This document shows positions 3,220 to 28,642 of a DNA stretch of 64,000 nt, piece by piece (the first letter of the stretch is position 1; every line of letters starts with the position of its first letter). The stretch is taken from NCBI GenBank assembly GCA_020632915.1, contig JACKEP010000023.1, forward strand, positions 1 through 64,000, read 5' to 3'. Position numbers and translations under genes: made by a program. Source of the DNA: Alphaproteobacteria bacterium (lineage in GTDB: Bacteria > Myxococcota_A > UBA796 > GCA-2862545). The notes below the pieces were generated by a model that made no database searches, was not told the DNA's origin, and saw only the letters and a list, made by a program, of their open reading frames with translations.

Positions 3220-4242
<1,023 letters not shown>

Positions 4243-8709: not shown

Positions 8710-10452
8710 ATGCGCCGCATGTCACGACCGCACCCCGCTCTCGCCCTCGTCGTCGCCGCCGCGTTCACGCTGCGCGTCCAGCCCGTCTACAGCCTGGACG
8801 TGTGGTGGCACCTGTCGATGGGCCGGGCCGTGCTCGACGCGGGCGCGCGCACGGTGCCCGAGCCGGTGGGCCTGCTCGGCCCGTCCACCTACGTCGACCC
8901 CGAGTGGCTGTTCGACGTGCTGGCGCTGGGCCTGTTCGAAGCGGGGGGGCCGGCGGCGATCGTGCTGGTGACGGCGCTTGCGGCAGCCCTGTCGGCGCTT
9001 GCGGTCGACGCGCTGGCGCGGGCGGCCGGGGCCTCGGCGGATCGCGCGGTGGTGGTGACGGCGCTGGTGGCGGCGGCGTCGAGCTTCCGGTTCCTGCCGC
9101 GACCCCAGAGCCTGTTCCTCGTGCTGCTCCCGCTGGTGATGGCGCTGGTGCTGACGTTCCGTTCGCGGACGGGCCCGGCTCGGTGGGTGGCGCTCGCGGG
9201 CGTGTGGGCGACCGTCGCGCTGTGGAGCCAGGTGCACACCTCGGTGGTGATCGCGCCGGTGGTGGTGGCCTGCATGGCGTGGCCGGGCTGGACGGGGGCG
9301 CGCCCGCTGCGCGCCGCGGACGTCGCGTGGCTCGCGCCGGTGGCAGCGGCGCCGTTCCTGGGCGCCTTCGGGGTGGGCGTGGTCGACCAGGTGCTCCGTC
9401 ACAGCGACGGGGACGCCACCCGCTACATCACCGACATGCGCCCGATGGCGCCGATCGAGCTGGCGCTCGTCACCCAGCCGAGCATCCTGCTGCTCGACGC
9501 CCTGCTGCTCGGCACGCTCGGGCTCGCGGGCTGGCGTCGACGGGCGCCGCCGGGCGGCGTGGTGCTGGCCATCCTGGGCTTCGCGCTCACGTCGACGGCC
9601 AACCGGTTCCGTGCGGCGTGGGCGATCCTGCTCGCGCCGTGGGCGGCGACGGTGGCGGGTGCGGATCCGCTGCCCCGGGCGGTGCCGTGGGGGGCCGCGG
9701 GTGTGGTCGCGCTGCTCGCCGTCACCCAGGTGCCCCACCTGGGGCTGGGCGTCGACCGCGGCATGGTGGCCGTCGACCTCGTGCAGGCGATGGAGGACCA
9801 CGACGTCCGCGGGGCCGTGTTCGACGACTACGACGTCGGCGGCATCCTCGGCTGGCGGATGGCCGGCCGGGTGCGCGTGCTCCTCGACGGGCGCACCCCC
9901 ACCCACTTCGACGCCGACGACCTGTACGCATGGCGCCGCGGCGTGCGCGATCCTGAGGTGTTCGACACCCTCGACCGCGCGTTCGGCTTCGCCGCGGTGG
10001 CGATCGCCCGTGACCGGCCGCTGTGCGGGGCGCTGTCGGGCCGCGGGTGGGTACCGGTGTGGTCCGACGCGCGGCGGGTGTTGTTCCTCCGCACCGGCGC
10101 GGCCGTGCCCGACGCCTGCCTGCCGCCGGTCGATCCGACGCCACGGCAGGGTGACGGTGGCGCCGGTGAGATCGCCGCGTGGGACGCGCTGCTCGATGCC
10201 GGCCGCGCGGACGACGTCGTCGCTGCGGCGAGCGCGGTGGTGGATCGGCTCGGCCACGAGGCGTCGCCCGCGGTCGACCTGCGCCTGGCCCGTGCGTGCG
10301 CGATGACGGGCGACGCCGCCTGTGTGGGCAGCCGGGCGTGGCGCGCCGCGCTCTACGGCCAGCCCGGGGCGCTGGACCTGCTCGCCGCCGTCCGCGACCG
10401 GCTCGACGACGGACCGCAGCGGCGCACGGACGCGCTGCTCGCCACGCGGTAG
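8710..10452 (+). CDS. polytopic membrane protein, possibly a GT-C-type glycosyltransferase (hypothetical)
   Basis: About 10-12 predicted TM helices (for example LALVVAAAFTL, AAIVLVTALAAALSALAV, SLFLVLLPLVMALVLTF). An early loop motif reads LDVWWHLSMGRAVLDAG. The C-terminal ~230 aa are soluble. The family assignment is tentative. Confidence 0.6.
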   Translation: MRRMSRPHPALALVVAAAFTLRVQPVYSLDVWWHLSMGRAVLDAGARTVPEPVGLLGPSTYVDPEWLFDVLALGLFEAGGPAAIVLVTALAAALSALAVDALARAAGASADRAVVVTALVAAASSFRFLPRPQSLFLVLLPLVMALVLTFRSRTGPARWVALAGVWATVALWSQVHTSVVIAPVVVACMAWPGWTGARPLRAADVAWLAPVAAAPFLGAFGVGVVDQVLRHSDGDATRYITDMRPMAPIELALVTQPSILLLDALLLGTLGLAGWRRRAPPGGVVLAILGFALTSTANRFRAAWAILLAPWAATVAGADPLPRAVPWGAAGVVALLAVTQVPHLGLGVDRGMVAVDLVQAMEDHDVRGAVFDDYDVGGILGWRMAGRVRVLLDGRTPTHFDADDLYAWRRGVRDPEVFDTLDRAFGFAAVAIARDRPLCGALSGRGWVPVWSDARRVLFLRTGAAVPDACLPPVDPTPRQGDGGAGEIAAWDALLDAGRADDVVAAASAVVDRLGHEASPAVDLRLARACAMTGDAACVGSRAWRAALYGQPGALDLLAAVRDRLDDGPQRRTDALLATR

Positions 10453-15428: not shown

Positions 15429-16511
15429 ATGAGCCGTCAACACAACTTCTCAGCCGGTCCGGGCGTGCTGCCCGAGTCGGTCGTCCAGCAGACCCAGGAA
15501 GCCCTCTGGGAGCTCGAGGGCTGCGGTCAGGGTCTGGCCGAGACGTCCCACCGGGGCAAGGCCTTCGACGCCGTGTTCCAGCGCTGCAAGGACCGCGTGC
15601 GCACCCTGCTGGGCCTGTCGGAGGACCAGGAGGTGCTGCTGCTGCACGGCGGCGCGCGCACCCAGTTCTACCAGATCCCAATGAACCTGCTCCGCGGCGG
15701 CACGGCGGCCTACCTCGACACCGGGGCGTGGTCCCACTACGCGATCGAGGACGCGCGGCGCTTCGGTGAGGTGGTCGTGCCGTGGAGCAGCCGCGAGCAG
15801 GGCTACGACAGCGTGCCCGCCGCCGGCCAGTGGGGCAGCGTGCCCGCCGGCACGCGCTACCTGCACTACACGTCCAACAACACCATCGCCGGCACCGAGT
15901 ACGACCACGTCCCCGAGGTCGACGGCACCTGGCTCGTCTGCGACGCCAGCTCGAACATCCTGTCGCGCCCGATCGACGGCAGCCGGTTCGACCTGCTCTA
16001 CGCGGGTGCCCAGAAGAACCTCGGCACCTCGGGCGTCACGCTCGTGGTGATCCGCAAGGCGCTCGTGGAGGCCGGCGACAAGGACCTGCCCCCGATGCTC
16101 CGCTACGACAAGCAGGTCGCCAAGGACAGCATGCTCAACACGCCGTGCACGGTGGGCATCTACGTGGTCGAACGCGTCCTGGCCTGGATCGAGGCGCAGG
16201 GTGGCGTGGCCGCGGTCGACGCGCGCAACGACCGCCAGGCGGCCGCGGTCTACGGCACCATCGACGCTACCGGCTTCTGGCACGGCAAGGCCCAGCGGGC
16301 GTCGCGCAGCCGGATGAACGTCACGTTCACCACCGGCGACGACGCGCTCGACGCGCGCTTCGTCAAGGAGGCCACCGCCGCCGGGCTGCACGGCCTCAAG
16401 GGCCATCGCTCGGTGGGCGGCCTGCGCGCGAGCCTGTACAACGCGCAGACCGACGCGGCGGTCGATGCGCTGGTCGCGTTCATGAAGGACTTCGAGCAGC
16501 GGGTCGGCTGA
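15429..16511 (+). CDS. serC: phosphoserine aminotransferase
   Basis: MSRQHNFSAGPGVLPESV...GLAETSHRGKAF...LLLHGGARTQFY...YAGAQKNLGTSGVTLVVIRK is class-V aminotransferase/SerC-like. Adjacent to serA. Confidence 0.9.
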   Translation: MSRQHNFSAGPGVLPESVVQQTQEALWELEGCGQGLAETSHRGKAFDAVFQRCKDRVRTLLGLSEDQEVLLLHGGARTQFYQIPMNLLRGGTAAYLDTGAWSHYAIEDARRFGEVVVPWSSREQGYDSVPAAGQWGSVPAGTRYLHYTSNNTIAGTEYDHVPEVDGTWLVCDASSNILSRPIDGSRFDLLYAGAQKNLGTSGVTLVVIRKALVEAGDKDLPPMLRYDKQVAKDSMLNTPCTVGIYVVERVLAWIEAQGGVAAVDARNDRQAAAVYGTIDATGFWHGKAQRASRSRMNVTFTTGDDALDARFVKEATAAGLHGLKGHRSVGGLRASLYNAQTDAAVDALVAFMKDFEQRVG

Positions 16512-16526
16512 CCCTGGAGGTGGCGC

Positions 16527-16901
16527 ATGGCCGAGACGGACAACGACGAGGCGTTCGGCTTCGACGAGGAGCCCGGGCTCGATCCCGACGACCTGGTCAC
16601 GCTCGCCGACGCCGACGGCGTCGAGCAGGTCTACCTGGTGCTGGCGGTGCTCGAGCACGAGGGGCGCACCTACGCGGTGCTCACGGCCCAGCTCGAGGGC
16701 GACGAGGACGGCGAGACGTCGGGCGACCTGATGGTCACCTGCTACGACGAGGCCCAGACGGGCGCTGCGCGCTTCTCGCCGCTGGACGACAGCGACGTGC
16801 TCGACGCGCTGGGCGAGATCGTCGCGCAGCTGGTCGGCTTCGAGGCCGACGATCCGGACGTGCTGTCCCCGGTGCTCGGCGGACCGGTCGCCCAGGCCTG
16901 A
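16527..16901 (+). CDS. DUF1292-family small acidic protein
   Basis: Pattern DADGVEQVYLVLAVLEHEGRTYAVL...DLMVTCYDE is characteristic of DUF1292. Confidence 0.55.
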   Translation: MAETDNDEAFGFDEEPGLDPDDLVTLADADGVEQVYLVLAVLEHEGRTYAVLTAQLEGDEDGETSGDLMVTCYDEAQTGAARFSPLDDSDVLDALGEIVAQLVGFEADDPDVLSPVLGGPVAQA

Positions 16902-17003
16902 TCCGACGGCGTCGTCGCCGGTACCGACCCGGCGGCGACGACCTGCCCCCCGTGCCTTATACTCGCGCTTCCGGCGCCCTCGGGGTGCGGTACGGGGTGT
17001 GAT

Positions 17004-20000
17004 GTGACGTTCGTGGCCAGGGGCAACGGGGTACCGGCGCCGCCCGCACCGTTCATCGGGCGCACCGACGCGCTGGACTGGCTCACGCGCCACGTCCGCG
17101 CCGGCGCTCGCGTGGCCGTCACCGCTGCCGGGGTCACGGGCGTGGGCCGCACCGCGCTGGTCCAGGCCTTCGCCCGCGACGCGCAGTTCGACACCGCGCT
17201 GTGGTGGTCCACGTGCCTCGACGGCAACCGGCCCCACCTGGCGCTGCGCCGGTGGGCGATGCGCTGCGGCCTGCCCGTCGACGGCGTGGGCACGCTGCCG
17301 GGCCTGCTGCAGGCAGTCGCGCTCGGCCTGCCCGACGCGGGCACGCTGCTCGTGGTGATCGACGGCGTCGACACCGGCGACGTCGACGCGGTGCTCGAGG
17401 TGCTCTCGGCACTGCCCGAGGACGCGGCCGTGCTGCTCACCACGTCCACCGCGGCCGTCGCCGAGGCGCTCGACGCGCGCACGCTCGTGCTGGCGCCGAT
17501 GCACGACGACGACGCGCGCGCCCTGCTGGAGGCGGTCGCCGACGAGCGGATGCCGCCGATGGTGGTCCACACGGTCCTCGAGGCCGCCGACCGGCTGCCG
17601 CTGGCGCTGCGCGTGGTCGCGTGCCGGATGCGCGGCACCGACCCCGACGAGGCCACCGGCATCTGGGGGCTGCCGCCTGCGCCGGGTGCCGTGGCCCGCC
17701 TGGGCGGCAACCTCGCGCTCGCCCGCGCCACGCTGCTGGTGCTCGATCGCGCGTCCGACGCCACGGCGCGGGTGTTCCGCGCGCTCGGGGTGCTCACCCA
17801 CGGACCGATCCAGCCGGCGCGCGTGGCGTCGCTGCTCGAGATCAGCGAGGCGAGCGCGTTCGACCACCTCCACCAGCTGGTCGAGCTCGGCCTGGTCGTC
17901 GGCGCGGGCGGCGTCGGTCGCTGGCAGGTCCACACGGCCCACCTCGAGCACGCGCGCAACCTGCTCGCGGTCGAAGACGAGCTCGACGCGCTCTACCTGG
18001 CGCGGGTGGCCGAGGCCGTGGAGTCCGAGGGGGCTCCGAGCGCCGGCTTCGGTCCGCTCGACCTGCTCGACACCTTCGAGCGCGCGATCCGTCGGGGCGA
18101 CGTCGACCACCTGGTGGCGCTCGCGATGCACGCCGCGCCGGCCGTCTCGGGCTGGTGCCACGAGGCCGCCCAGGAGCTGGTCGCGGCGGCGATGGCCGCG
18201 GCCGAGGCCGCGTCCCACCCCGAGGTCGACGAGATCGCGGCGCAGATGATGCAGCTCGACGCCGTCGCGGCGGTCGCCGTGGCCACGCTCGAGGTCGCGC
18301 CGCTGCGCGACGACGCCGTGTCCCCCTCCACCGACACCGCCGACGACGCCGAGTGGGTCGACATCGTCGAGCTGTCCGGCGGGGTGGGTGACGACGCGCG
18401 CGCTGCCGTGGAGGTCGTCGACCTCGACCTCGACGACGACCCGTCCAAGGTGGAGCCGGTGGTGGCCGTGGAGCCGATCGAGCGCGTGCCCGCCGAGGTG
18501 AGCGGTGCCGTCCCGGTCGTCGAGGTCGAGGAGCTCGACGCGCCCGACGAGCTGTCGCTGGTCGACGAGGCCTCGGTCGACGACGTGTCGAGCCTGCCCC
18601 TGGAGCCGCTCGACAACGAGATCACCACGCTCGACGACGACGAGGTCGCCACGCAGGCGATCTCCACCGCCGCGATCGAGGCGGCGATGGCCGCCGCCCG
18701 CGGACGTCCGCGCCCCACGCCCGCGCCGGCACCGGCGCCGGCACCGGTCGAGCCTCACGAGGCCTTCCTGCGCGAGCACGGCCTGTCGCTGGTGTGGCCG
18801 GTCGACGCCCTCGACGCCCCGTCGGGCTCTCCCGAGCAGGACGGCCCCACGCAGATCTTCGACATCGGCCGCATGATGGCCTTCGTGCGCGGCGCCCAGT
18901 CCGAGCAGGCCCGCGACGCGGCCGTCGACCGGGCGCGCGTGGCGGCCGAGGCGGCCACCGCGCTGCACGCCCGCGCCGTCGAGCTGGTGCAGGGCATCGT
19001 CGCCGCCGAGCCCACGTCCGACAGCTGGCGCGACGCCCGCGCGCGTCTGCTCGGCAGCGCCCGCAAGCTCGCCGAGCACGTCCGCAGCGCGCGCGCCGCG
19101 GCGTCGGCCGCCACCGACGCCCCCGAGGCCGCGTCCGCCCGTCGGGCGTCGGAGCGCGCCGAGCGTGCCCACGAGGCCGCCATCCGGGCGATGGCCGTCG
19201 TCGAGCGCGCGTGGACCGACGCCGAGGACGCCCGCGTCGAGGCCGTCGAGTCCCGCGCCCGCGCGGTCGCCGCCGTCCACCGCGCCCGCAGCGACGCCGC
19301 GCTGGCCCGGCAGGGGGTCGAGGAGGCCGAGCGTCGCGTGCAGGCCGGCAAGGACACCGCCGGCCCGTCCGTCGCGGAGGCCTTCGACGAGGTCGACGCC
19401 GCGCTCGGTCGCGCCCGGGCCGCCGCCGAGGAGGCGGGCGTGCTCGCGTCCCAGGTCGACGCCGGCGACATCGATCCGGAGATCGGCGCCGCCGAGGTCG
19501 CCCGCCTGCGCACCGCGGCCGACGACGCCAGCGCCCAGGCGGTGGAGCGTCTCAGCCGCTCGGCGCGCAACGTCCGCGCCGAGCAGCGTCGGCAGACCGT
19601 GCTGGAGGAGGCCCGCGAGCAGGCCGAGCGCGTCGACCGCGACGCCGCGTGGATCGCCTCGCTCGGCGTCGAGATCGAGGGCCTGCTGCGCGACCGCGAC
19701 GACGTCGAGGCCAAGGACCTGCGCGGGCGGCTGCGCGAGCTGGTCGGCAACGTCGAGCGCCACCGGGTGCGCGCCGCGGAGGCCGTCGAGGAGCTCCAGA
19801 TCGCTGCCGAGCGGGGCTGGCGTGAGCTGCTCGACCACGTCGCCGCGGCGGGCCGCGCCACCACCGACGGCCTGCAGGAGGCCGAGCGCCTCCGCGCCGA
19901 CGTCGACGCGTGGGCGGCCCTGGAGGTCGAGGCCTCCGAGGACGTCGTGCTCGCCGGGCTCCAGGCCGAGGCGGCCACCGCGCTCGCCGGGCTCGAGGCC

Positions 20001-23000
20001 ACCGCCGCCGTCGCGTGGCGTGCCGCGTCGCGCGCCCACCAGGCCGCGGCCCACCACGAGGGCGGCCTCGTCGACGCCATCGGTGCCCTCAAGGAGGGCG
20101 AGCTGCGCCTGCGCACGGCGGTCGAGCAGGCACGCCAGGGGCTGCGGCAGGTGATCGACGCCCCCGAGCTCGCCGTCGCGCGCGCGCGCTGGACCGAGGC
20201 CGGCGTGTGGATCGAGGACGCGGAGGACGCGAGCGCCGAGTCCCGCGCCCTGGCCGAGGCCCTGCTCGAAGCGGCCGACGCCCGACGTCGCGCCCACGTC
20301 GACGAGCAGGTGGCGCAGGGCGAGATCATCGCCGCGCGCATCGACGCCGTCATCCAGAGCGCCCGGTCCGCCGCGGCCGAGGTGCGCGAGCTCGCCGAGG
20401 ACTTCCCCGACGAGCCCACCGAGGCGCTCGGCACGCTCGCCGCGATCGAGGCGCGGGTCGAAGACACGGGTGCCGCCGTGCACGACGGCGTGCAGCGCCT
20501 GCGCCGTGCCCGCGACGGCGACCTCGCCGAGCGGCTGGTGGCCGCCATCTCCGAGGCCGCCGAGCTCGTCTCCGGTCAGCTCGCCGAGATCGAGCAGGTG
20601 CAGCTCCAGATGCGCTCGCTGCACGAGGTCCGCTTCGACCCGGGCTACCGCCGCCAGCAGGCCGAGGACGTCCTCGACGAGGCCCGCGCCGCCATCGCCG
20701 CCGCCCGCGCCGAGGTCGACGCCGTGCGCACCGACGCCGGTCCGGCGATCGAGGTCGTCGCCACGGCGCTCGGCGAGTCGGTGAGCGAACTCGACGGTGC
20801 CAGCGCCCTGCTCGACGCCGCGCCCGACCTCGGCGACGCCGCAGGGGGATGGGACGCCGCGTTCGAGGAGCTCGTCGCGCGCGCCGACGCCGTCACGCGC
20901 CTCACCGAGCGGGTGCGCCAGGCCACGCTGTCGGCGCGGTCGCTCCTCGCCATGGTCCAGCAGCGCCGCAAGGACGAGGTCGCCGACGCCCGCGCACGCG
21001 CTGCGGCCCCCTGGGACGAGGCGATCGCCGAGGCCCGCGCGGTCATCGGCCAGCTCGTCGATCCGCCCGACGTCGACGACGCGTGGCCCGTGCCCGTCGG
21101 GCGCATCCACCTCGCCTGGCAGCAGGCGATCGACGGGGTCCACGGCGCGCTGGTCGCGCTGGAGACGCTCGCGGCGCGGGTCGAGGACGGCGACGACGGC
21201 GCGGCGCTGCTGCCCCGGGTCGCAGCCCTGCGGGCCCAGGTGGAGGCCGAGGCCGATCGCGCCCGCCGCCGCGCCGACGACCTGACGGCGTCGGTGGCCG
21301 CGTGGCACGAGCACCGCCGGGCACGCGCCGTGGTCGACGACGCCCGTGTGGCCGTGGCCGACGAGGCCGCCACGCTGGTCGACCCGGGCGTGAAGCTGTC
21401 GTCGCTCGACGACGCGGACGACGCGCCCGCGCCTGCGACCGTCCCCGAGCCCGTGGTGGCGCCTGTCCCAGCGACCGCGCTCGCGACGGAGGTGCCCGAT
21501 GTCGACATGGCCGACGACGCCACCGTGATCGAGCCGATGGAGGTCGAGCTGTCGGCCGACCCGGTGACGTCCGGCGTGTCGTTCGAGGAGGTCGACGTCG
21601 AGGTGCTCGACGCCACGGCGATCGCGGCCGCCCCCACCGCGTCGGACGCGCTCCGGGCCGGCCTGCAGGACGCTGCGCTCCGCGCCGCGCTGTCGGCGGA
21701 CGAGGTGGCCTCGCTGGCGCGCGACGCCGCCATGGAGGTCGCCGAGGCTGGCGTCGACGACGTGGCCCAGGTGGCGGCACTGGAGGCGCTCGCCACCCAC
21801 ACCCGTTCACTGGCCGACGGCGTCGAGGCGCAGGTGGCGTCGCCGTCCGACGCCGTGCCGGCGGCCGAGCAGCTCGCCGCGGCCGAGGCGGCCTGCGACG
21901 CCGCGGAGGCGGCGCTCCTCGACGCGCGCGAGCTCCACGCCCAGGCCAGCGAGGCCGTCGCCTCGGCGAGCACCCTGCGCCTGCAGGGCCACCGCCGTGC
22001 GGCACGCGCCTGCCTGGACGAGGCGAACCAGGCGCTCGCGGTGGTGCGCGATCGCCACGACGCCGCGGTGCGCGAGGCCGCGTCCGCCGACGACCCGGCC
22101 GCCCTGGCTGCCGACGTCGACGCCCTCGCCGCCCTGCGGGCCGACGCCGAGGCCCACGCCGCGCAGGTGCGCGAGGCGGTGGAGCGCTGCCAGGGCGACG
22201 ACGAGCAGGTCGCGCACGATGCGGCCCTCGACGCCGCCGCGGCCGTCGCGTCGATGCTGCGCGCGCCCGACGAAGCGGGGCGCCTGCTCGACGCTGTGCA
22301 GGCGGTGGCCCGTGCCCAGCTCACCGCGCGCCTCGACGACGCGCGCGGTCGTGCCGACGTGGCGGGCGACCAGGCGGAGGCGGCCCGGCAGGCGGCGTCC
22401 GAGGCGCTCGCGTGGGTGCGCACCCTGCGCACCGAGCTGGGGGAGCGCGCCCCCGAGGCCGCCGTGGCCGTCGAGCGCGCGTCCCACACGGTCGCCGATG
22501 CCGCCGACGTGACGACGGCCCACGTGGCCACGGTGCGGCAGTCCGGTTCGGCCACGCAGGCGCTGGCGTCCGCGGAGCACGCGGTGCGCTCGGCGTCGGG
22601 CCTCGCGGGCGTGCTGGCGTCGATGGACGCAGCGCGCCGGATGGCCGAGGCAGCAGCGGCGCCGATCCGGGAGGCGGTGGCGCGGGAGCAGGCCGCCGAG
22701 CGTGCCCGCCGCGGCAACGCGGTCACGCAGGTGCAGGCGGCGATCGACGCCGTGCGCGTCGGGCGTGAGGTGGCAGACGGCCTCGTCGCGCCTCAGGCCC
22801 GGGCGACCGGCCTGCTCGAGGAGATCGACGGCGTGGTCGAGGCGCTGGCGGACTGGCGACGCGACGTGCGCGGGGTCGCTGCGGGCTGGCGCGCGCCGTC
22901 CGTGCGCGCGGCCGTGGTCGACGCCCAGGCCGCCATCGACGCCGCGTGGGCGCTGCATGCGCAGGTGGTGGCGGCGGTCCACGCCGCCACGCGCGCCACG

Positions 23001-23486
23001 TCCGTGCGCGTGGCCACCCAGCACGCCGAGGTGGCCGAGGCGGCCGCAGGGGATCTGTCGCTGGCGCTCGACGCGGCCCGCGACGCCGTGGACGCCGTCA
23101 CCGAGGCGGTCGACGACGCGGACGCGGCGCGGCGCGCGGCGCCCACGGGTCCGGGGGATGCCGTGGCCCTGCGCCGCAGCGGCGCGCCGTCGCTGGCGCT
23201 GGATGCCGCGCTGGCCGCCCAGGCGTCGGGGGCCGACCTCCCCGACGTGGCGCGGGCCGCGCTCGCGTTGGGCGTGGCCCAGGCGTGGCTGGGGCTCGGC
23301 CACGCTGCGGCGGCACGGGACGCGGTGGCGCAGGCGCGGGCGCTGTCGGACGACGCCGAGGTCGGCGCCCTGGCCGACCGCATCGCCGCGTTGGCCGATC
23401 GCGCCACGCCCCCGGCCGGTGCGGTGGCTGCGTGGGCGCTGTCGAAGGACGCGCGGCGGCGGGCCCGGCGGGTGGTCGGGCCCTGA
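17004..23486 (+). CDS. giant (2,160 aa) NB-ARC-like STAND NTPase fused to an Ala-rich predicted helical/coiled-coil region
   Basis: GTG start. N-terminal motif succession: FIGRTDALDWL, glycine loop AAGVTGVGRT (P-loop-like with K replaced by R), LLVVIDGVD, LLTTST, DRLPLALRVVA. About 1,750 residues rich in A/E/D/R/V with no stop follow. C-terminal TPR-like ALALGVAQAWLGLGHAAAARDAVAQARAL. Strong GC3 codon bias in this frame. Confidence 0.75.
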   Translation: MTFVARGNGVPAPPAPFIGRTDALDWLTRHVRAGARVAVTAAGVTGVGRTALVQAFARDAQFDTALWWSTCLDGNRPHLALRRWAMRCGLPVDGVGTLPGLLQAVALGLPDAGTLLVVIDGVDTGDVDAVLEVLSALPEDAAVLLTTSTAAVAEALDARTLVLAPMHDDDARALLEAVADERMPPMVVHTVLEAADRLPLALRVVACRMRGTDPDEATGIWGLPPAPGAVARLGGNLALARATLLVLDRASDATARVFRALGVLTHGPIQPARVASLLEISEASAFDHLHQLVELGLVVGAGGVGRWQVHTAHLEHARNLLAVEDELDALYLARVAEAVESEGAPSAGFGPLDLLDTFERAIRRGDVDHLVALAMHAAPAVSGWCHEAAQELVAAAMAAAEAASHPEVDEIAAQMMQLDAVAAVAVATLEVAPLRDDAVSPSTDTADDAEWVDIVELSGGVGDDARAAVEVVDLDLDDDPSKVEPVVAVEPIERVPAEVSGAVPVVEVEELDAPDELSLVDEASVDDVSSLPLEPLDNEITTLDDDEVATQAISTAAIEAAMAAARGRPRPTPAPAPAPAPVEPHEAFLREHGLSLVWPVDALDAPSGSPEQDGPTQIFDIGRMMAFVRGAQSEQARDAAVDRARVAAEAATALHARAVELVQGIVAAEPTSDSWRDARARLLGSARKLAEHVRSARAAASAATDAPEAASARRASERAERAHEAAIRAMAVVERAWTDAEDARVEAVESRARAVAAVHRARSDAALARQGVEEAERRVQAGKDTAGPSVAEAFDEVDAALGRARAAAEEAGVLASQVDAGDIDPEIGAAEVARLRTAADDASAQAVERLSRSARNVRAEQRRQTVLEEAREQAERVDRDAAWIASLGVEIEGLLRDRDDVEAKDLRGRLRELVGNVERHRVRAAEAVEELQIAAERGWRELLDHVAAAGRATTDGLQEAERLRADVDAWAALEVEASEDVVLAGLQAEAATALAGLEATAAVAWRAASRAHQAAAHHEGGLVDAIGALKEGELRLRTAVEQARQGLRQVIDAPELAVARARWTEAGVWIEDAEDASAESRALAEALLEAADARRRAHVDEQVAQGEIIAARIDAVIQSARSAAAEVRELAEDFPDEPTEALGTLAAIEARVEDTGAAVHDGVQRLRRARDGDLAERLVAAISEAAELVSGQLAEIEQVQLQMRSLHEVRFDPGYRRQQAEDVLDEARAAIAAARAEVDAVRTDAGPAIEVVATALGESVSELDGASALLDAAPDLGDAAGGWDAAFEELVARADAVTRLTERVRQATLSARSLLAMVQQRRKDEVADARARAAAPWDEAIAEARAVIGQLVDPPDVDDAWPVPVGRIHLAWQQAIDGVHGALVALETLAARVEDGDDGAALLPRVAALRAQVEAEADRARRRADDLTASVAAWHEHRRARAVVDDARVAVADEAATLVDPGVKLSSLDDADDAPAPATVPEPVVAPVPATALATEVPDVDMADDATVIEPMEVELSADPVTSGVSFEEVDVEVLDATAIAAAPTASDALRAGLQDAALRAALSADEVASLARDAAMEVAEAGVDDVAQVAALEALATHTRSLADGVEAQVASPSDAVPAAEQLAAAEAACDAAEAALLDARELHAQASEAVASASTLRLQGHRRAARACLDEANQALAVVRDRHDAAVREAASADDPAALAADVDALAALRADAEAHAAQVREAVERCQGDDEQVAHDAALDAAAAVASMLRAPDEAGRLLDAVQAVARAQLTARLDDARGRADVAGDQAEAARQAASEALAWVRTLRTELGERAPEAAVAVERASHTVADAADVTTAHVATVRQSGSATQALASAEHAVRSASGLAGVLASMDAARRMAEAAAAPIREAVAREQAAERARRGNAVTQVQAAIDAVRVGREVADGLVAPQARATGLLEEIDGVVEALADWRRDVRGVAAGWRAPSVRAAVVDAQAAIDAAWALHAQVVAAVHAATRATSVRVATQHAEVAEAAAGDLSLALDAARDAVDAVTEAVDDADAARRAAPTGPGDAVALRRSGAPSLALDAALAAQASGADLPDVARAALALGVAQAWLGLGHAAAARDAVAQARALSDDAEVGALADRIAALADRATPPAGAVAAWALSKDARRRARRVVGP

Positions 23487-23518: not shown

Positions 23519-24727
23519 TCAGGCCTCGTCGAGCAGGCGGACGGCCACGCCCTCGCGCAGCTTGGGCTCGAACCACGTCGACTTGGGCGGCATCACCTTG
23601 CCGGCGTCGGCCACGTCGAAGAGCTGGTCGAGACCGGTGGGGAACAGGTGGAACGCCACCGCCGCCCCGGCGTCGACGGCCTTGACGAGCGCCTGGGGCC
23701 CGCGGATGCCACCGACGAACGTGATGCGCTCGGAGCGCCGCGGATCGTCGATGCCGAGGATCGGGGCGAGCAGGTGGTCCTGCAGCACGCTGGCGTCGAG
23801 CGTGGCCACCGGGTCGTCGGTGGTGACCAGGCCCGGCCGCGCCGTCAGCGTGTACCAGCGACCGGCCAGGTACATCGAGAAGTCGCCGCGCCGCGTGGGG
23901 ACGGGCCGCCCCGCGGTGAGCGTGAACCGCGCCGCGACCTGCGCGAGGAAGTCGTCGACGGTGTGGCCGTCGAGGTCGTGGACCACGCGGTTGTAGGCCA
24001 TCACCTGCAGGGCGTCGTCGGGGAACAGCCCGGCGAGGAACCAGGCGGACGGCGCGTCGCGGCGGTGGGCGTGGACGCGGCTCGCGGCGGCGGAGCGGTG
24101 GTGGCCGTCGGCGATGTAGAGCGCCGGCAGCTCGGCGAAGGCGTCACGGATGCTGTCGACGTCGTCGAGCGGCACCGGCCAGAGCGCGTGCTCCACGCCG
24201 TCCTCGGTGGTGACGCGCCACGCGGGGGCCGCCTGCGTGAGCCGGGCGACGATCGCGGCCAGACCGGCGTGGGCGCGGTGGGCCAGGAACACGAGGCCGA
24301 CCTGGGCGTCGAGCACCTCCATGTGGTGGGTGCGGTCGTCCTCCTTGTCGGGGCGCGTGAACTCGTGCTTCTTGATCGTGCCGTCGTCGTAGGCGCCCAC
24401 CGAGCACGCGGCGAGCACGCCGACCTGACGGTGCGCGCCCATCACCTGACCGTAGAGCAGGTAGGTGGGGGCGTCGTCGCGCACGAGCACGCCGTCGGAC
24501 ACGAGCTGGTCGAGGTTGACGCGCGCGCGGTCGTAGGCCGCCTGGCCGTGGGGGTCGGCGCCGTCGGGCAGATCGACCTCCGAGCGCGTGACGTGCACGA
24601 AGTTGCGGGGGTTCGTGGCGAGCGCGCGCGCCTCGTCGAGCGTGAGCACGTCGTACGGCGGGGCGATCACGTCGCCGGCGAGGTCGTCGCGAGGGCGCAG
24701 GGCGCGGAAGGGGCGGACGTCGGCCAT
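23519..24727 (-). CDS. DUF1015 family protein
   Basis: DUF1015-like length and motifs (RPFRALRP...APPYDVL...YIADGHHR...). ATG at 24727. Confidence 0.7.
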   Translation of the reverse strand: MADVRPFRALRPRDDLAGDVIAPPYDVLTLDEARALATNPRNFVHVTRSEVDLPDGADPHGQAAYDRARVNLDQLVSDGVLVRDDAPTYLLYGQVMGAHRQVGVLAACSVGAYDDGTIKKHEFTRPDKEDDRTHHMEVLDAQVGLVFLAHRAHAGLAAIVARLTQAAPAWRVTTEDGVEHALWPVPLDDVDSIRDAFAELPALYIADGHHRSAAASRVHAHRRDAPSAWFLAGLFPDDALQVMAYNRVVHDLDGHTVDDFLAQVAARFTLTAGRPVPTRRGDFSMYLAGRWYTLTARPGLVTTDDPVATLDASVLQDHLLAPILGIDDPRRSERITFVGGIRGPQALVKAVDAGAAVAFHLFPTGLDQLFDVADAGKVMPPKSTWFEPKLREGVAVRLLDEA

Positions 24728-24870
24728 GGGGGCTCCGGGGCGGCGGGAGCCCCTCCTATCCCTGTCGGCGCGCGCATCACGTCCCACCAACCAGATGCGC
24801 CCGGGCTGCATCTGCGGTAAGGATTGCCCGTTCGACCCAGGTGTCCGGAAACGAGCGAGGGGGCGCGCTG

Positions 24871-27726
24871 ATGGCGGCGTTTGATCTGCGCAACAACGAG
24901 CAGTCGGGGCAGCAGCTCCGAGGTCTGTCCGGTGGCTCCGTCCGCTGGGTCTACCTGGACGACGCGAACAGTTTCTACAACTTCCGCCTGCGCGAGCACT
25001 ACACCGACGACGACCTCGCCGAGCAGCCCGAGCGGCTGTGGCAGGCCAGCGATCACCCCGACGCCGAGGGCCTGCGCAGCCACATCGCCGACGCGCTCAC
25101 CGCCGGCGAGCGATTCAGCGACATCCTGCTGATCCTGTCGGCCGACGACTACGACAACCTCTCCGACGACGATCCCGCCTTCAAGGATCGCATCGTCGAG
25201 GTGCTGCGCGCCCGCTACGCCGAGTTCCTCGCCAAGAGCGCCGTCACCGCCAGCACGCGCCCGCTCGGCGTGTGGATCGTGCGCGACGGCAGCGACGAGG
25301 TCGGCGGCATGGACCGGTCCCTGCTCGAGGGCCAGTTCATCACCGGCGTGCTGCCCAACCTCTACCGCGGTCGCGGCCCCCACAGCCGGCCGATCATCGG
25401 GCTGCACGTCAACATCCCCGGCTACTGGGAGGGCTACCGCGAGGTCGGTCAGCTCCACGACGACCAGACGCTGTTCACGCTGGGCAACAGCTGGCTCGAC
25501 AACTTCAGCCATCCCAACCTGCGCGAGGCGGCGCTCTACGGCCTGCAGCGCGACGACGACGGCGCGTTCTTCCACATCATCAACCCCGACCTCGGCGACC
25601 GCTACCAGATCACCACCACGGATCAGGGCGGGGTCTCGGTGATCACGCTCGCCACGCGCGACGGCGTGCCGCTCGCCTACATCGTGCTCGCCGTCATCGA
25701 GCAGACCGAGGAGGAGGCGCTCGCCGGCCTGGGCGGTGAGCCCGTGCCCGCGCCCGAGCCCATCCACCGGCCCAAGCCGCTGGGCGATCACACGCCCCTG
25801 GCCCTCGACGCCTCCGAGGCGCCCGCGCTGGAGCCGGCCGCGCTGCCGCCGAGCGTCACCAGCCGCGGCCCCGGCAGCAAGACCATCATCCCCGAGGCCC
25901 AGAACGAGCGCATCTTCACCCTGCAGGAGCGCGGCGCCCTGCTCCAGAAGGTGCACTTCAGCGCGTTCATGCTCGGCTACGACGTCTACCTCGGCCTGCG
26001 CGGCGAGCTGGGCACGGTGGTCGACCAGCCGGCCGCCACGTTCCAGGTCCGCAAGCGCACCGTGTCGCTGCTCGCCAACGCCGACAACGTGGTGATGGAC
26101 GGCGAGCCGATCCCGCAGGGCGAGTCGCGCCTGATCGAGGGCGACGCCGTCATCCAGGTGGGCAACCAGCGCCTGGAGTACCGCGAGCTCCGCCACATCG
26201 AGCTCGAGGGCTGGCCCTACGTGGGCGAGATCCGTCGTCCGCCGTCGTCCACCTACATGCTGTGGGGACGGGAGTACACGATCGGCCGGTCGCGCGACTG
26301 CCGCGTGGTGCTGCCCGACGAGCCCCGCAACGACAACATCGTGTGGAAGCCCAAGGTCGGCGACGGCGCCACGATCAAGTCCAAGACGGGCGAGATCCCC
26401 AAGTCGCGCTTCTACACCGACTCGATCATGGTGGCGTCGGAGCACGCCGCGATCGAGCTCCTCGGCGACGTGCCCGAGCTGTCGTGCCACGCGCGCCACT
26501 GCTACACGTTCGTCCGTCGCCAGGGCGAGGTGCTGTCGCTGTTCCCCACCACCGAGGGCGACGCCGCCCACAAGGTGCCGCTGGTGTCGGGCGACGAGGT
26601 GCTCGTCGGCAACTGCGTGTTCCACATCTCGTTCGCTGCCGGCGACGACCTCGGTGCGGTGGCGCCTGCGCCCGCGCCCCGCGTGTCCAGCAACTCGCTG
26701 GTCGACGCCGTCTCCGCCCCCGAGCACACGCAGCCGCCGCCCGAGGCCCACGAGCCCGAGCCCATGCTGCCGCCGCCCGCGCCGGTCGAGCCGGAGCCCG
26801 CGCTCGGCAACCTGCCCGAGCTGTCGATGGACGAGCCGGTGGCGCCGCCGCGCATCGAGCCGGCCGCCGAGGCCGCCCTCGCCGCCGCGCAGCGCTCGTG
26901 GCCCGAGGCGATGGACGACGCCATGGCCGACGCGTCCGACTCGCCGCCGCCGGTGCGTCCGCCCCGCGCCCCCGCCCCGCCGCCGCCCTCGGCGCCGTCG
27001 GCGTCGATCGACATGCCTGCGCCTCCCGCGCCGGGTGGCGTGGTGGTCGTCGACGATCAGGACGCCCAGTTCGAGCTCGGTCGTCCCGCGCGCTTGGTGC
27101 AGGTGGGCTGGGCGGTCAACGGCTCGGTCACCTGCGGCAACCACGCCGGCGCGGATCTCGTGCTGCCCGAGAACCGCATCGAGGCCGACCAGCAGTTCGA
27201 GCCCACCGACTACTTCGCGCTCCGCATCCGGGGCCGTCGCGGCAAGCTCGAGGACGTGTCCAGCACCGAGGTGCGCGTCAACGGCGCGCCGTCCCAGCCG
27301 TCGTACGACAGCGTCGACGGGCTCGTGATCTCGGTCATCCGGCGCGACGACGAGGGCGAGGAGGACTTCACCGTCGACCTCACCGTCACCGAGGATCCGG
27401 CGCTGCCCGACCCCCGCGCCCGCCTCGTGAGCATCGACACCGACGAGCCGCTGGCCGTCGCGCTGATCACGCGCGGCTTCCCGGTGCGCGCGCCGCGCCT
27501 GCTCGAGCTCAACGGTCTGCAGGTCACCGGCACGTTCGACGGCACGCGGTTGCTGCTGTCGGAGTACCTGGCCGGCTACCGCACGGCGTCGGGATTCCGC
27601 GCGTTCTTCGTGCAGACCGACGGAGGCCGGTTCGTCACCGCCCCCGAGGACGGCTCGCCGCTGGAGCTGTCGCCGGGCGATCGGATCGTCATCGACGGTG
27701 CCGTGTTCCGCTTCGACGTGACATGA
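24871..27726 (+). CDS. large multi-domain protein with two FHA-like domains and Pro-rich linkers
   Basis: FHA-like cores YTIGRSRDCRVVLPDEPRNDNIVW...ASEHAAIELLGD and ELGRPARLVQVGWAVNGSVTCGNHAGADLVLPE. The N-terminal ~300-aa domain is unrecognised. Linker PAPAPRVSS...PPPAPVEPEPA. ATG at 24871 (the track ORF begins at 24841). Confidence 0.7.
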   Translation: MAAFDLRNNEQSGQQLRGLSGGSVRWVYLDDANSFYNFRLREHYTDDDLAEQPERLWQASDHPDAEGLRSHIADALTAGERFSDILLILSADDYDNLSDDDPAFKDRIVEVLRARYAEFLAKSAVTASTRPLGVWIVRDGSDEVGGMDRSLLEGQFITGVLPNLYRGRGPHSRPIIGLHVNIPGYWEGYREVGQLHDDQTLFTLGNSWLDNFSHPNLREAALYGLQRDDDGAFFHIINPDLGDRYQITTTDQGGVSVITLATRDGVPLAYIVLAVIEQTEEEALAGLGGEPVPAPEPIHRPKPLGDHTPLALDASEAPALEPAALPPSVTSRGPGSKTIIPEAQNERIFTLQERGALLQKVHFSAFMLGYDVYLGLRGELGTVVDQPAATFQVRKRTVSLLANADNVVMDGEPIPQGESRLIEGDAVIQVGNQRLEYRELRHIELEGWPYVGEIRRPPSSTYMLWGREYTIGRSRDCRVVLPDEPRNDNIVWKPKVGDGATIKSKTGEIPKSRFYTDSIMVASEHAAIELLGDVPELSCHARHCYTFVRRQGEVLSLFPTTEGDAAHKVPLVSGDEVLVGNCVFHISFAAGDDLGAVAPAPAPRVSSNSLVDAVSAPEHTQPPPEAHEPEPMLPPPAPVEPEPALGNLPELSMDEPVAPPRIEPAAEAALAAAQRSWPEAMDDAMADASDSPPPVRPPRAPAPPPPSAPSASIDMPAPPAPGGVVVVDDQDAQFELGRPARLVQVGWAVNGSVTCGNHAGADLVLPENRIEADQQFEPTDYFALRIRGRRGKLEDVSSTEVRVNGAPSQPSYDSVDGLVISVIRRDDEGEEDFTVDLTVTEDPALPDPRARLVSIDTDEPLAVALITRGFPVRAPRLLELNGLQVTGTFDGTRLLLSEYLAGYRTASGFRAFFVQTDGGRFVTAPEDGSPLELSPGDRIVIDGAVFRFDVT

Positions 27727-27751
27727 TGCGGGGGCCCTGGGAGCCCCCCAC

Positions 27752-28642
27752 ATGAAGCCTCGCGTCGGGATCGTCTGCACCACCACGCGCGACGTCCACG
27801 TCGGACGACGTGTGCGTCTTGCCGACAACTACCTCGTCTGCGAGGAGGGGCGCGCGTCGTGGCTCGAGGGCGAGGAGGAGCGGTCCCAGCGGATGGAGGG
27901 CTCGGGCGTGCTGCTCGCGGTGGCCGACGGGGAGGGCGACGACCTCGCCTCGGCGCGCACGGCGTCGGAGTCGTTCTGCCGGGCGCTGTCCAAGCGCTGG
28001 GCGGGTCCGCCGCCGCGCGAGCCAACGATCGCGCTCATCGACTTCCTCAACGGCGCCCACACGCGCATGTACTGGAAGTCGCGCGACCGCGACACGCAGA
28101 TGGGCGCGTCGTGCGCTGTGGCCTGGCTGCTCGCCGACCGGCTGCACTGGGTCGAGGTGGGCACGTGCCGGGTGTTCCTGCTGCGCGACGGCCACCTGCG
28201 GCGGCTCGGGGTGTCGTGGCCGCCGGGCGAGACCCAGCGGTTCCTGTCCGGCTCCCACGGCCTGGGCGACGACACCGCGCTGCACCTGGTGCTCGGTCGC
28301 AACGCCGGCGTGGAGCGCATCCAGGCCGGTGACCAGGTGATCGTGGCCACCGACGGCTACTGGCAGGCGGTCGACGCCGCCTCTACGGCCCACCTGCTCG
28401 GCCACGTCGACGACGCCCAGACGGCCGCCGTCACGATGATGGAGCGGGCCCTGTCCCGTGGCGCCAACGACAGCGTCACCGTGGCGCTCGCCGACCTGCG
28501 GGCCGCGGGCGCCAAGGCTGCGTCGTTGCCGAAGGTCGCGGGCGTCGACGCCCCCGAACCGAAGCGGGCCGCGCCGGTGCGCACCGACGAGCCGCCGGTC
28601 CGTCCACGCAAGAAGCTGCGCGAGGCCACCACCGAGCCGTGA
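27752..28642 (+). CDS. PP2C-family (PPM) serine/threonine phosphatase
   Basis: PPM motifs GVLLAVADGEG, ASCAVAWLLADRLHWVEVGTCRVFLLRDGHLRRL and GDQVIVATDGYWQAV. Sits immediately downstream of the FHA protein. Confidence 0.75.
   Translation: MKPRVGIVCTTTRDVHVGRRVRLADNYLVCEEGRASWLEGEEERSQRMEGSGVLLAVADGEGDDLASARTASESFCRALSKRWAGPPPREPTIALIDFLNGAHTRMYWKSRDRDTQMGASCAVAWLLADRLHWVEVGTCRVFLLRDGHLRRLGVSWPPGETQRFLSGSHGLGDDTALHLVLGRNAGVERIQAGDQVIVATDGYWQAVDAASTAHLLGHVDDAQTAAVTMMERALSRGANDSVTVALADLRAAGAKAASLPKVAGVDAPEPKRAAPVRTDEPPVRPRKKLREATTEP

Follow-up and report, generated by a model that had tools for sequence, protein, structure and literature searches.

A Giant NB-ARC-Type STAND Protein with Degenerate Nucleotide-Pocket Motifs and a Long, Predicted Helical Arm

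RESULTS

A giant gene at a conserved chromosomal locus

The window analyzed here, a 64,000-nucleotide stretch of contig JACKEP010000023.1, contains a gene at 17013 to 23486 on the forward strand, as are all of its parts described below, which spans 2,157 codons plus a stop and codes for a product identical to NCBI protein MCB9682473.1. The GTG at 17013 is the preferred start, being that used by NCBI and the one from which the N termini of the orthologs align; an alternative GTG upstream at 17004 would give an ORF of 2,160 amino acids (17004 to 23486), and this entire frame is uninterrupted. The product has a computed mass of 223.8 kDa, a pI of 4.59, and a net charge of −161, and its most abundant residues include Ala (25.2%), Val (10.4%), Arg (9.2%), Leu (9.1%), Asp (8.9%), and Glu (8.2%). 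No substantial tandem repeats were found in the gene at the DNA level.

A frame of this length could be a by-product of 77% GC DNA, or a pseudogenized STAND gene followed by noncoding sequence, as high GC content yields many long ORFs (34 of at least 150 amino acids overlap in 13 kb here), and one part of the protein, arm II, lacks BLAST-detectable conservation. This explanation is effectively refuted by several lines of evidence. The GC content by codon position is 0.857/0.534/0.955, with GC3 at 0.94 to 0.975 in every 600-nt window along the whole gene, and the antisense ORF at 15450 to 21800 (2,116 amino acids) has the mirror pattern (0.958/0.504/0.815), identifying that ORF as the artifact, as was originally proposed. 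The frame is intact at all six orthologous loci, neither broken nor absent at any, and is open for 1,627 to 2,298 codons in six lineages whose flanking proteins are only 62 to 77% identical; there are 48 invariant columns in arm I, and conservation extends through the C-terminal module and tail, right up to where the frame ends. Estimates of dN/dS from the L001/L004 pair range from 0.10 for the NOD, showing strong purifying selection there, to 0.26 for linker 1. The segment from 17013 to 23486 is thus a real protein-coding gene.

The gene belongs to a seven-member family, all of whose members come from metagenome-assembled genomes (MAGs) or metagenomes, with one orthologous locus on each source contig. 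The order L21-L27-obg-rsfS-rlmH-serA-serC-DUF1292-gene-DUF1015-960aa-PP2C recurs unchanged at five of six loci, with its upstream half shared by the sixth (L001); Pfam confirms the initial assignment of serA-serC-DUF1292 upstream. The genes for a 960-amino-acid protein and a PP2C phosphatase are conserved together beside the gene in four lineages, and the P0002 lineage lacks this pair downstream. The shared position in six of six divergent genomes, five with the full order, indicates vertical inheritance rather than the mobility of an island. NCBI labels the MAG "Alphaproteobacteria bacterium," but the same study produced a sister MAG with the name HK-STAS-MYXO-36, which points to Myxococcota; the host lineage is probably myxobacterial, and an earlier placement within the Sorangiineae is not borne out by these names.

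An AfsR-type NOD in a nondefense setting

Residues ~8 to 340 (17034 to 18032) form a genuine NB-ARC/AfsR-type STAND module, with an NBD containing five β-strands, a helical domain, and a winged helix, in agreement with the preliminary description of this DNA. A family profile matches AfsR in the PDB (8k60_I) with an E value of 3.4e-18, pairing profile positions 7 to 338 with AfsR residues 289 to 636, and Foldseek searches with an AF2 model of residues 1 to 430 return Apaf-1, NRC3/4, and CED-4 at E values of 5e-11 to 1e-8; AF2 confidence for the NOD is moderate (pLDDT 68.5). Pfam matches HTH/winged-helix domains at residues 252 to 299, and the NB-ARC score of the N terminus (21.8 bits) falls below the cutoff of 23.5. 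An exhaustive search recovered 14,182 STAND relatives, the nearest being NB-ARC-TPR sensors. The winged helix is followed by a helical extension (residues 341 to 420; 18033 to 18272), for which the AF2 model has helices at residues 348 to 425 with a pLDDT of about 80 to 90; its conservation is 0.29 to 0.34, and W381, C382, and E384 are kept.

The preliminary description raised the idea of an Avs-like antiphage STAND, in which the giant helical arm would recognize a phage protein. Avs3 is among the Foldseek matches of the NOD model (E value of 3.4e-7), large STANDs with unusual sensor arms, as well as KpAvs8 with its degenerate Walker motifs, are known in defense (PMC13581612), and the arm evolves rapidly. 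However, the NOD starts at residue ~8, leaving no room for an N-terminal effector domain, and Pfam finds no effector domain in the protein. PADLOC gives no match for the protein or its neighbors except one generic AAA+ match, no relatives of the gene were found on viral contigs, and the neighborhood comprises ribosome-associated and serine-biosynthesis genes and lacks defense systems. Together with vertical inheritance, the single orthologous locus per contig, and the lack of a second STAND within the 64-kb window, these observations contradict a role in phage defense, which we consider very unlikely.

Degeneration of the nucleotide-binding pocket

The motifs first reported from the translation (FIGRTDALDWL, AAGVTGVGRT, LLVVIDGVD, LLTTST, and DRLPLALRVVA) are all present and align with their AfsR counterparts, and each key column was tallied in the seven family members and in 143 outgroup STAND proteins. 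The Walker A motif GVTGVGRT (residues 40 to 47; 17130 to 17153) has Arg46 at the position of the canonical Lys. This change is not a conserved Lys-to-Arg substitution, as had been supposed, but part of a wider catalytic loss: four family members have Arg and one each has Cys, Ala, and Lys, whereas 141 of 143 outgroup proteins have Lys. The single Lys-bearing member, P0005, keeps GIGKT and is nested within the family, which is monophyletic in the tree. Phosphate binding is normally lost when Ala or Cys takes the place of the Walker A Lys. All members share the P-loop glycines and Thr47.

The Walker B motif LVVIDG (residues 113 to 118; 17349 to 17366) retains its first Asp, Asp117, in all members, but the second acidic position is Gly in all seven, compared with Asp in 90 and Asn in 43 of the outgroup proteins. 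About a third of the outgroup thus carries Asn at this position, as does AfsR itself, a measurable ATPase (PMC10936776), and substitution there is not in itself proof of inactivity. The segment LLTTST (residues 141 to 146; 17433 to 17450), described as TTR-like, does lie at the sensor-1 site, without the Arg that defines it; residue 145 and its equivalents are Ser, Asp, Asp, Glu, Glu, Glu, and Pro, with Arg in none of the seven members but in 116 of 143 outgroup proteins. It is the sensor-1 Arg that reads the γ-phosphate. Two further motifs are well preserved, the GLPLAL-like DRLPLALRVVA (residues 193 to 203; 17589 to 17621), in which L195, P196, and L197 are invariant and which pairs with AfsR GFLPLAIRIAA, and the MHD-type His307 of the winged helix (17931 to 17933), found in all seven members and in 134 of 143 outgroup proteins. 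Collectively, the tallies show catalytic degeneration across the family: the Walker A Lys is dispensable, no member has kept the sensor-1 Arg, and Gly has taken the place of the second Walker B acid.

Retention of the P-loop glycines, Thr47, and the MHD His means that nucleotide binding, and hence some switch behavior, may persist. The protein could be a working STAND switch that binds ATP or ADP without hydrolysis or with very slow hydrolysis, its helical arm sensing a ligand or protein and autoinhibiting the NOD; ligand binding would lead to oligomerization, with either the C-terminal hairpin and basic tail or the neighboring PP2C phosphatase and 960-amino-acid protein relaying the output. 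The invariance of Asp117 and the GLPL motif, the Lys in P0005, the purifying selection on the NOD, the kinship to NB-ARC-TPR sensors, and the coconservation of the 960-amino-acid protein and PP2C genes in four lineages all favor such a switch, as does AfsR, an ATP-regulated nonimmune NLR (PMC10936776). Against it are the replacement of the Walker A Lys by Ala or Cys in two orthologs, the missing sensor-1 Arg in all seven, the lack of an effector domain, and the P0002 lineage without the downstream pair; arm II and the linkers, described below, also evolve too fast and are too rich in indels for a precise ligand-binding surface. A working switch is possible but somewhat doubtful.

A composite arm without known relatives

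Behind the NOD lies not a single arm of uniform makeup but two acidic linkers, two helical regions, and a C-terminal module. Linker 1 (residues 421 to 600; 18273 to 18812) is acidic and contains Pro, with Asp plus Glu reaching 28% and a net charge of −14 to −16 per 60 residues; it is indel rich in the full alignment (gap fraction, 0.44 to 0.56; identity, 0.13 to 0.17) and is probably disordered. Arm I (residues 601 to 1440; 18813 to 21332) is a conserved all-α rod region of 840 residues that is homologous in all family members, at 31 to 39% identity. Its AF2 model (pLDDT 82.5) has 16 helices of 29 to 78 residues with short turns between them, confidently predicting a chain of antiparallel helical bundles. 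Linker 2 (residues 1441 to 1560; 21333 to 21692), which is acidic and contains Pro, has a gap fraction of 0.52 to 0.61 and an identity of 0.09 to 0.12 and varies greatly in length among orthologs; P0006 and P0004 have acidic insertions of several hundred residues behind arm I. Arm II (residues 1561 to 2040; 21693 to 23132) is Ala rich (up to 37%), poor in Pro and Gly, and fast evolving, with an identity of 0.14 to 0.23 in the full alignment and no BLAST or phmmer similarity to the orthologs when searched alone; its composition suggests that it is helical, and a conserved motif, L.AWRR....W..GW, lies near its end.

Arm I has no match in Pfam or to PDB sequences and no significant Foldseek match, the best being vinculin, talin, and α-catenin at E values of 0.11 to 0.5 and a TM-score of about 0.1. 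The arm is without a known relative by Pfam, PDB sequence, or significant fold match, and the view that it is neither TPR, WD40, nor LRR and may be undescribed stands. Its description as helix or coiled coil holds for helix, as in the arm I model, but not for a long coiled coil, with turn-separated helices, two acidic linkers, and no sustained heptad periodicity found in the protein.

The C-terminal module (residues 2041 to 2157; 23133 to 23483) consists of one or more putative helical hairpins and a basic, Arg-rich tail, AAWALSKDARRRARRVVGP (residues 2139 to 2157; 23427 to 23483), with a net charge of +5. In a full-length phmmer comparison, residues 2041 to 2157 match residues 2056 to 2172 of P0004 (E value of 1.3e-8), and the module is 50% identical to that of the L028 ortholog. 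An end resembling TPRs had been noted, and there is weak profile similarity (TPR proteins at E values of 0.02 to 0.04, an hhalign E value of 0.13, and weak matches to outgroup TPR arrays), but the segment has no Pfam match; these similarities weakly suggest a TPR remnant at most.

DISCUSSION

A candidate scaffold built on a noncanonical NB-ARC module

The explanation that we favor, with about even confidence, is that this is a lineage-specific, chromosomally fixed, nondefense STAND whose NB-ARC module is no longer a canonical NTP-hydrolyzing switch and which serves as a scaffold. The NOD would be a docking or oligomerization hub independent of hydrolysis, its pocket either empty or occupied by a nucleotide that serves as a structural cofactor, and the acidic helical rod of roughly 1,700 residues would, from its architecture, be an elongated scaffold or spacer. 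For the C-terminal hairpin and its Arg-rich tail, binding to a partner, to a membrane, or to nucleic acid is proposed. With a degenerate NOD and these putative roles, the protein would be a structural or signaling scaffold and not an ATP-driven immune sensor. There is precedent, as the P-loop is not required in RRS1-R and P-loop-independent NLRs are known (bioRxiv 10.1101/2025.04.11.646618), and nondefense STAND clades are interspersed with defense clades (PMC13581612).

Comparison with known systems

Arm I resembles vinculin, the talin rod, and α-catenin in gross architecture only, all being serial bundles of antiparallel amphipathic helices of about 30 to 80 residues; these eukaryotic proteins share no sequence similarity with arm I, and the likeness is an analogy rather than evidence of homology. 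Apaf-1, CED-4, and plant NRC proteins are the best structural matches to the NOD, sharing with it the order NBD-HD1-WHD and, behind this, a helical extension resembling HD2, at a sequence identity of only 13 to 22% and a TM-score of about 0.3, the low TM-scores reflecting domain arrangement. Unlike these, the protein has no CARD, CC, or TIR effector and no WD40 or LRR sensor, and its catalytic residues are degenerate. RRS1-R and KpAvs8 are functional despite a dispensable Walker A Lys or degenerate Walker motifs, but they act in immunity, and the partners to which they are paired or related are catalytically competent, whereas here the context is housekeeping and the 64-kb window holds no canonical STAND partner.

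The closest likeness is to the NB-ARC-TPR STANDs (PF00931) and the NOD of AfsR (PDB 8k60/8jke), which have the same ordered hhGRxxEL, P-loop, Walker B, GLPLAL, and MHD-type His. The resemblance to the AfsR NOD extends over about 330 residues, and the family falls within a set of about 14,000 NB-ARC-TPR STANDs. What stands in place of the TPR array, however, is a stretch of roughly 1,700 residues made up of linkers and orphan helical regions, and no more than one TPR-like hairpin remains, at the C terminus; an N-terminal output domain, SARP or other, is missing. AfsR hydrolyzes ATP (PMC10936776), its kcat being about 0.07 to 0.15 per s, whereas in this family three catalytic positions (Walker A Lys, second Walker B acid, and sensor-1 Arg) are degenerate. 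Like AfsR, the protein appears to be a chromosomal, nonimmune STAND.

A giant gene in a conserved housekeeping neighborhood

The giant gene is listed as an open reading frame (ORF) of 2,160 amino acids (aa) with a GTG start (positions 17004 to 23486, forward strand), and its product has exactly the sequence of NCBI MCB9682473.1, [quoted passage not shown] in which the start is the GTG at 17013 and the length is 2,157 aa; the alignment of orthologue N termini begins at the 17013 start, from which residues are numbered here. All five motifs quoted in the preliminary description are present in the translation. The frame is open throughout, with a GC3 of 0.94 to 0.975 in all 600-nt segments of the gene (GC by codon position, 0.857/0.534/0.955), as befits a real gene, and the overlapping antisense ORF (15450 to 21800; 2,116 aa) has mirror-image codon-position GC (0.958/0.504/0.815) and is thus an artefact, as first proposed. 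That the giant frame itself is a spurious ORF is scarcely credible; it is also intact in all of the orthologous loci, nowhere broken into small ORFs. The protein (223.8 kDa; pI 4.59; net charge −161) is rich in A (25.2%), V (10.4%), R (9.2%), L (9.1%), D (8.9%), and E (8.2%), and neither a transmembrane-like segment in the protein nor substantial DNA tandem repeats in its gene were found. A promoter and terminator scan around the gene returned nothing useful, and the absence of sigma-70-like promoter matches between 16400 and 25000 is expected given the ∼75% GC content and promoters of a non-enterobacterial type; in the whole window (1 to 64000), Rfam gives no match at or above the gathering score of the family concerned.

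Five loci with giant-gene orthologues share one gene order, (FHA-FHA-HEAT-AAA)-L21-L27-obg-rsfS-rlmH-serA-serC-DUF1292-GIANT-DUF1015(−)-∼960 aa-PP2C-...-Band7-S8, and a sixth locus (L001) has only the upstream part of it in common. The serA-serC-DUF1292 synteny suggested earlier is thus found in the five, with DUF1292 missing in the L001 lineage. In the window, the DUF1292 gene (16512 to 16898, forward) is upstream of the giant gene, its product being 42 to 46% identical between lineages, and the DUF1015 gene (23522 to 24811, reverse; 74 to 77% identical) converges from downstream, with the two stops ∼33 bp apart. The giant-protein family is orthologous and vertically inherited.

The neighborhood has other features of its own. 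Directly upstream of the PP2C gene (27722 to 28639, forward), and overlapping it by a few bases, is a gene (24841 to 27723, forward) coding for a 961-aa protein without a Pfam domain, which is far better conserved than the giant protein (59 to 63% identity and 74% mean column identity across four lineages). FHA-like signatures can be seen by eye (YTIGRSRDCRVVLPD...SEHAAIE), and an FHA domain was confirmed neither by Pfam nor by a four-sequence profile searched against PDB sequences; the protein represents an uncharacterized conserved family and possibly forms a phospho-signaling pair with PP2C. A conserved cluster at 3067 to 7190 (forward) contains genes for a double-FHA protein (3067 to 4239), a probable HEAT-like protein, and an AAA+ ATPase (5439 to 7190), and is also located upstream of L21-L27-obg in orthologous loci; the generic PADLOC IetA/TRIP13 matches of the ATPase reflect AAA+ similarity, not a defense system. 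Between the AAA+ gene and L21/L27 is a GC3-biased ORF of 685 aa (8395 to 10449, forward) with no Pfam or PADLOC match, and two orthologous loci (L030 and L031) have ∼590-aa genes, also without Pfam matches, at this position. Three large FG-GAP/VCBS-repeat proteins, probably secreted or at the surface, are encoded at 44977 to 47442 (reverse), 51801 to 55094 (forward), and 55098 to 58403 (forward), and two of these are tandem paralogues of ∼1,100 aa each.

The organism is probably an activated-sludge Myxococcota MAG, because the source of one family representative (P0004) is MAG HK-STAS-MYXO-36, from a study that uses MYXO for Myxococcota (PMC8518188), and the locus-tag prefix of the window, H6733, comes directly after H6732, the prefix of that MAG. 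An earlier placement in the Sorangiineae was not borne out. The NCBI labels of representatives P0001 and P0004 and of loci L003 and L004 ("Alphaproteobacteria bacterium," "Proteobacteria bacterium," or "uncultured proteobacterium") are probably outdated placeholders.

A divergent NB-ARC module and a small protein family

The N terminus of the giant protein belongs to the NB-ARC clade of STAND NTPases (PF00931), in agreement with the preliminary description. The Pfam NB-ARC score for the first 400 aa is 21.8 bits (E = 1.2e-4), below the 23.5 cutoff, and that for the full-length protein is 16.5 bits, so this is a divergent member recognized by profiles only; weak Pfam winged-helix/HTH matches follow the NB-ARC region at aa 252 to 299. 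A three-sequence family profile (alignment A1, N-terminal) searched against PDB matches the NB-ARC module (NOD) of Streptomyces AfsR (8k60_I) at E = 3.4e-18, with profile positions 7 to 338 corresponding to AfsR 289 to 636 and every motif aligned, and matches tomato NRC1/2/3 more weakly. The AF2 model of aa 1 to 430 (pLDDT, 68.5) runs from five beta-strands through a helical domain and a winged helix to a helical extension, and the top Foldseek matches of its NOD are Apaf-1, NRC3/4, CED-4, Roq1, ZAR1, and Avs3 (E = 5e-11 to 1e-7; Apaf-1, NRC, and CED-4 at 5e-11 to 1e-8). Because the NOD (to aa ∼340) starts at residue ∼8, there is no N-terminal effector.

Searched exhaustively with an HMM, 1.84 billion representatives yielded 14,182 STAND proteins at E ≤ 1e-3, with a sharp break in the ranking between the giant-protein family and canonical STANDs. 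Six representatives (P0001 to P0006), all of 1,627 to 2,298 aa, are at E < 1e-120, and the canonical STANDs are at E ≥ 1e-40; the nearest relatives beyond the family are ordinary NB-ARC-TPR proteins. P0007, of 901 aa and encoded on a JGI contig of 4,053 nt outside the window, is intermediate (E = 1e-50) and marks a more distant branch. Its motifs are degenerate in the same way (GVGRT, IDG, no sensor-1 Arg), and part of it is homologous to arm I, the conserved part of the giant-protein arm (E = 3.5e-18); the ∼80 residues at its end are rich in Arg, Gly, and Pro and resemble the product of a frameshift or an assembly error. The seven members are monophyletic in a neighbor-joining tree of the NOD, with P0007 basal. 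All of the family clusters are singletons, seven among 1.8 billion representatives, known from MAGs and metagenomes only and called "hypothetical protein" where the source names them. A genome scan adds L004, a close relative of P0002 cut by a contig end, and family-specific peptide patterns revealed no further members in JGI metagenomes or IMG/VR viral contigs. The exhaustive search superseded word-indexed searches with the N-terminal 420 aa and with an arm I profile, which were uninformative because Ala-rich words fill the 8,000 candidates allowed, so that nothing was returned and even known family members were missed; the N-terminal homology of P0001 and P0002 was also missed by composition-adjusted BLASTP and was recovered by phmmer.

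Relaxation of the catalytic residues

A P-loop NTPase normally loses productive nucleotide binding when Ala or Cys takes the place of the Walker A Lys, and loses hydrolysis when Arg does. Walker A of the window protein reads GVTGVGRT, without the canonical Lys of GxxxxGK[ST], and the motif columns were tallied from the NODs of the seven family members and of 143 canonical STAND relatives (the outgroup) aligned to the family HMM. At the Lys position, four members have R and the others C (P0003), A (P0004), and K, compared with K in 141 of the 143 outgroup proteins; the sole Lys is in P0005, the sister of the window protein. The Arg noted in the preliminary description is therefore real in the window protein but is not a conserved K-to-R change. 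The sensor-1 Arg (TTR motif) occurs in none of the seven (S, D, D, E, E, E, and P; Ser145 in the window protein), against 116/143 in the outgroup, and the second Walker B position is G in all seven, compared with D in 90 and N in 43 of 143. Every member keeps the first Walker B Asp, the P-loop glycines and Thr, the LPL motif (LPL195-197), and the MHD-type His (His307; 134/143 in the outgroup). The phosphate-contacting and gamma-phosphate-sensing residues are thus relaxed family-wide in a fold that is kept under strong purifying selection; dN/dS for one close pair (L001 versus L004) is 0.099 in the NOD and 0.257 in the acidic linker. The Walker B Gly alone is not decisive, because AfsR, which has Asn there in the profile alignment, still hydrolyzes ATP (PMC10936776).

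A slow or nonhydrolyzing nucleotide-binding switch, in which the arm senses a ligand, would fit the pocket glycines and Thr that are kept, the MHD His, and the Walker A Lys of P0005. This is the main rival explanation and a tentative one, to be set beside the Ala or Cys at the Walker A Lys position in two members and the missing sensor-1 Arg in all seven.

A predicted helical rod and a conserved C-terminal module

Delimited by conservation in a six-sequence alignment and by composition, the regions following the NOD are a conserved helical extension (aa 341 to 420), an acidic, indel-rich linker 1 (aa 421 to 600; net charge −14 to −16 per 60 aa), the conserved arm I (aa 601 to 1440), an acidic/Pro-rich linker 2 (aa 1441 to 1560) that extends to several hundred residues in P0006 and P0004, the poorly conserved arm II (aa 1561 to 2040; Ala up to 37%), and a conserved C-terminal module (aa 2041 to 2157). 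As a whole, the protein has a catalytically degenerate but selected NB-ARC head, flexible acidic linkers, a long rod resembling helical bundles, and a small conserved module at its tail. It is much more diverged than its neighbors, which are 62 to 77% identical across orthologous loci; identity is 37 to 43% in the NOD, 31 to 39% in arm I, and, in two of five loci, 42 to 50% in the C-terminal module, and BLAST does not detect arm II.

Arm I is homologous across every family member, P0007 included, and has 48 invariant columns, with no match in Pfam or among PDB sequences and none of its HMM to the 143 outgroup STANDs. AF2 (six sequences; mean pLDDT, 82.5; pTM, 0.34) predicts 16 helices of 29 to 78 residues separated by short turns, in which long helices alternate with helices of ∼30 to 35 residues, as expected of a chain of antiparallel bundles. 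The preliminary description gave the middle of the protein a predicted helix or coiled-coil character; the coiled-coil reading is rejected, given these turns and a hydrophobic periodicity that is significant only locally (aa 911 to 1330; 3.5 to 3.6) and has no sustained heptad register. A long coiled coil of the SMC/Scy type was likewise rejected, since sustained heptad or hendecad periodicity is absent and AF2 splits the arm. An hhalign comparison of arm I with itself gives a weak off-diagonal match offset by ∼350 residues (E = 7e-4; probability, 26%), and an internal duplication with this offset is possible and compatible with the AF2 helix-length pattern. The giant protein has no significant structural or sequence similarity to vinculin, talin, or alpha-catenin rods. 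Because it is confidently predicted and is without a sequence relative or a significant fold relative, the conserved 840-residue helical region may define a new rod-like module.

When the single sequence was scanned with Pfam, NCBIfam, and PADLOC, neither the arm nor the C terminus had a match, and no TPR, WD40, or LRR repeat family was found by Pfam in the whole protein or its C-terminal 200 aa. The last ∼120 residues are conserved by phmmer and in the C-terminal alignment (A4), and their hairpin (AQAWLGLGHAAAARDAVAQARALSD) bears a weak resemblance to TPRs (E = 0.02 to 0.04 against PDB TPR proteins; E = 0.13 against an outgroup TPR by hhalign); the C-terminal HMM also gives weak repeated matches to the TPR arrays of two outgroup proteins in a 150-sequence database. 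The TPR-like C terminus described earlier thus persists as a weak profile resemblance (E = 0.02 to 0.13) but is not matched by Pfam. A motif, L.AWRR....W..GW, is located upstream of a basic tail (..SKDARRRARRV..P; net +5) that ends four of six proteins. A possible reading is that an NB-ARC-TPR ancestor retained a remnant of its TPRs as over 1,500 residues of new helical sequence arose between this remnant and the NOD.

Putative role and relationship to known STAND proteins

An Avs-like antiphage role, raised in the preliminary description, is not favored by the context or the domain content. No Avs-type effector (nuclease, SIR2, protease, TIR, etc.) is fused to the NOD by Pfam, NCBIfam, or PADLOC; there is no PADLOC signal for the giant protein and no defense system among its neighbors; no partner STAND was found elsewhere in the 64-kb window; and the family is absent from viral contigs. 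The gene sits in a housekeeping order that is the same in five of six lineages, with the upstream half in the sixth, and is not patchy or island-like. A defense STAND is therefore very improbable.

The usual view of STAND and NLR proteins is that of switches driven by nucleotide, in which a sensor made of repeats is coupled to an effector. In the giant-protein family the NB-ARC fold is kept under strong purifying selection, yet Walker A has R, C, A, or K, and there is no sensor-1 Arg, effector, or recognizable repeat sensor; an orphan rod of ∼840 residues and roughly 500 fast-evolving residues stand where the repeat sensor would be, and in deeply diverged genomes the gene occupies a single, fixed housekeeping locus. 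The reading that we favor, with about even confidence, is that the NOD would be a hydrolysis-independent hub and that the rod and tail would act as a scaffold or adaptor. The family offers a natural test case for an NB-ARC without hydrolysis, for example as a constitutive hub or structural nucleotide holder, and, outside the transcription regulators, the giant protein is an example of a nonimmune NLR relative in bacteria. A bolder version, which is unlikely, draws on the architecture of talin and vinculin: an NB-ARC domain permanently without NTP hydrolysis would have been co-opted to head an acidic helical-bundle rod of 220 kDa, its arm fold without described relatives, to form a bacterial cytoskeleton-like or polarity scaffold in an uncultured lineage of Myxococcota. 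It would then be the first STAND protein whose role is structural and not that of a switch. The biological impact is probably narrow, because the family is tiny (seven clusters) and MAG-only.

Parts of the hub-and-scaffold reading have precedents, in that RRS1-R is an NLR with a dispensable P-loop (bioRxiv 10.1101/2025.04.11.646618), degenerate Walker motifs are known from KpAvs8, and there are nondefense STAND clades (PMC13581612). The giant protein differs from the large SARP/AfsR-type activators in that the alignment of the two NODs starts at its residue ∼7 to 8 and at residue 289 of AfsR, and no SARP (OmpR-type DNA-binding plus BTA) domain precedes it, Pfam finding no DNA-binding domain there. 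The superfamily of the head is well known, and what is new is the combination of a catalytic set that is degenerate family-wide yet under purifying selection, a fixed position among housekeeping genes, and a confidently predicted orphan rod followed by fast-evolving sequence.
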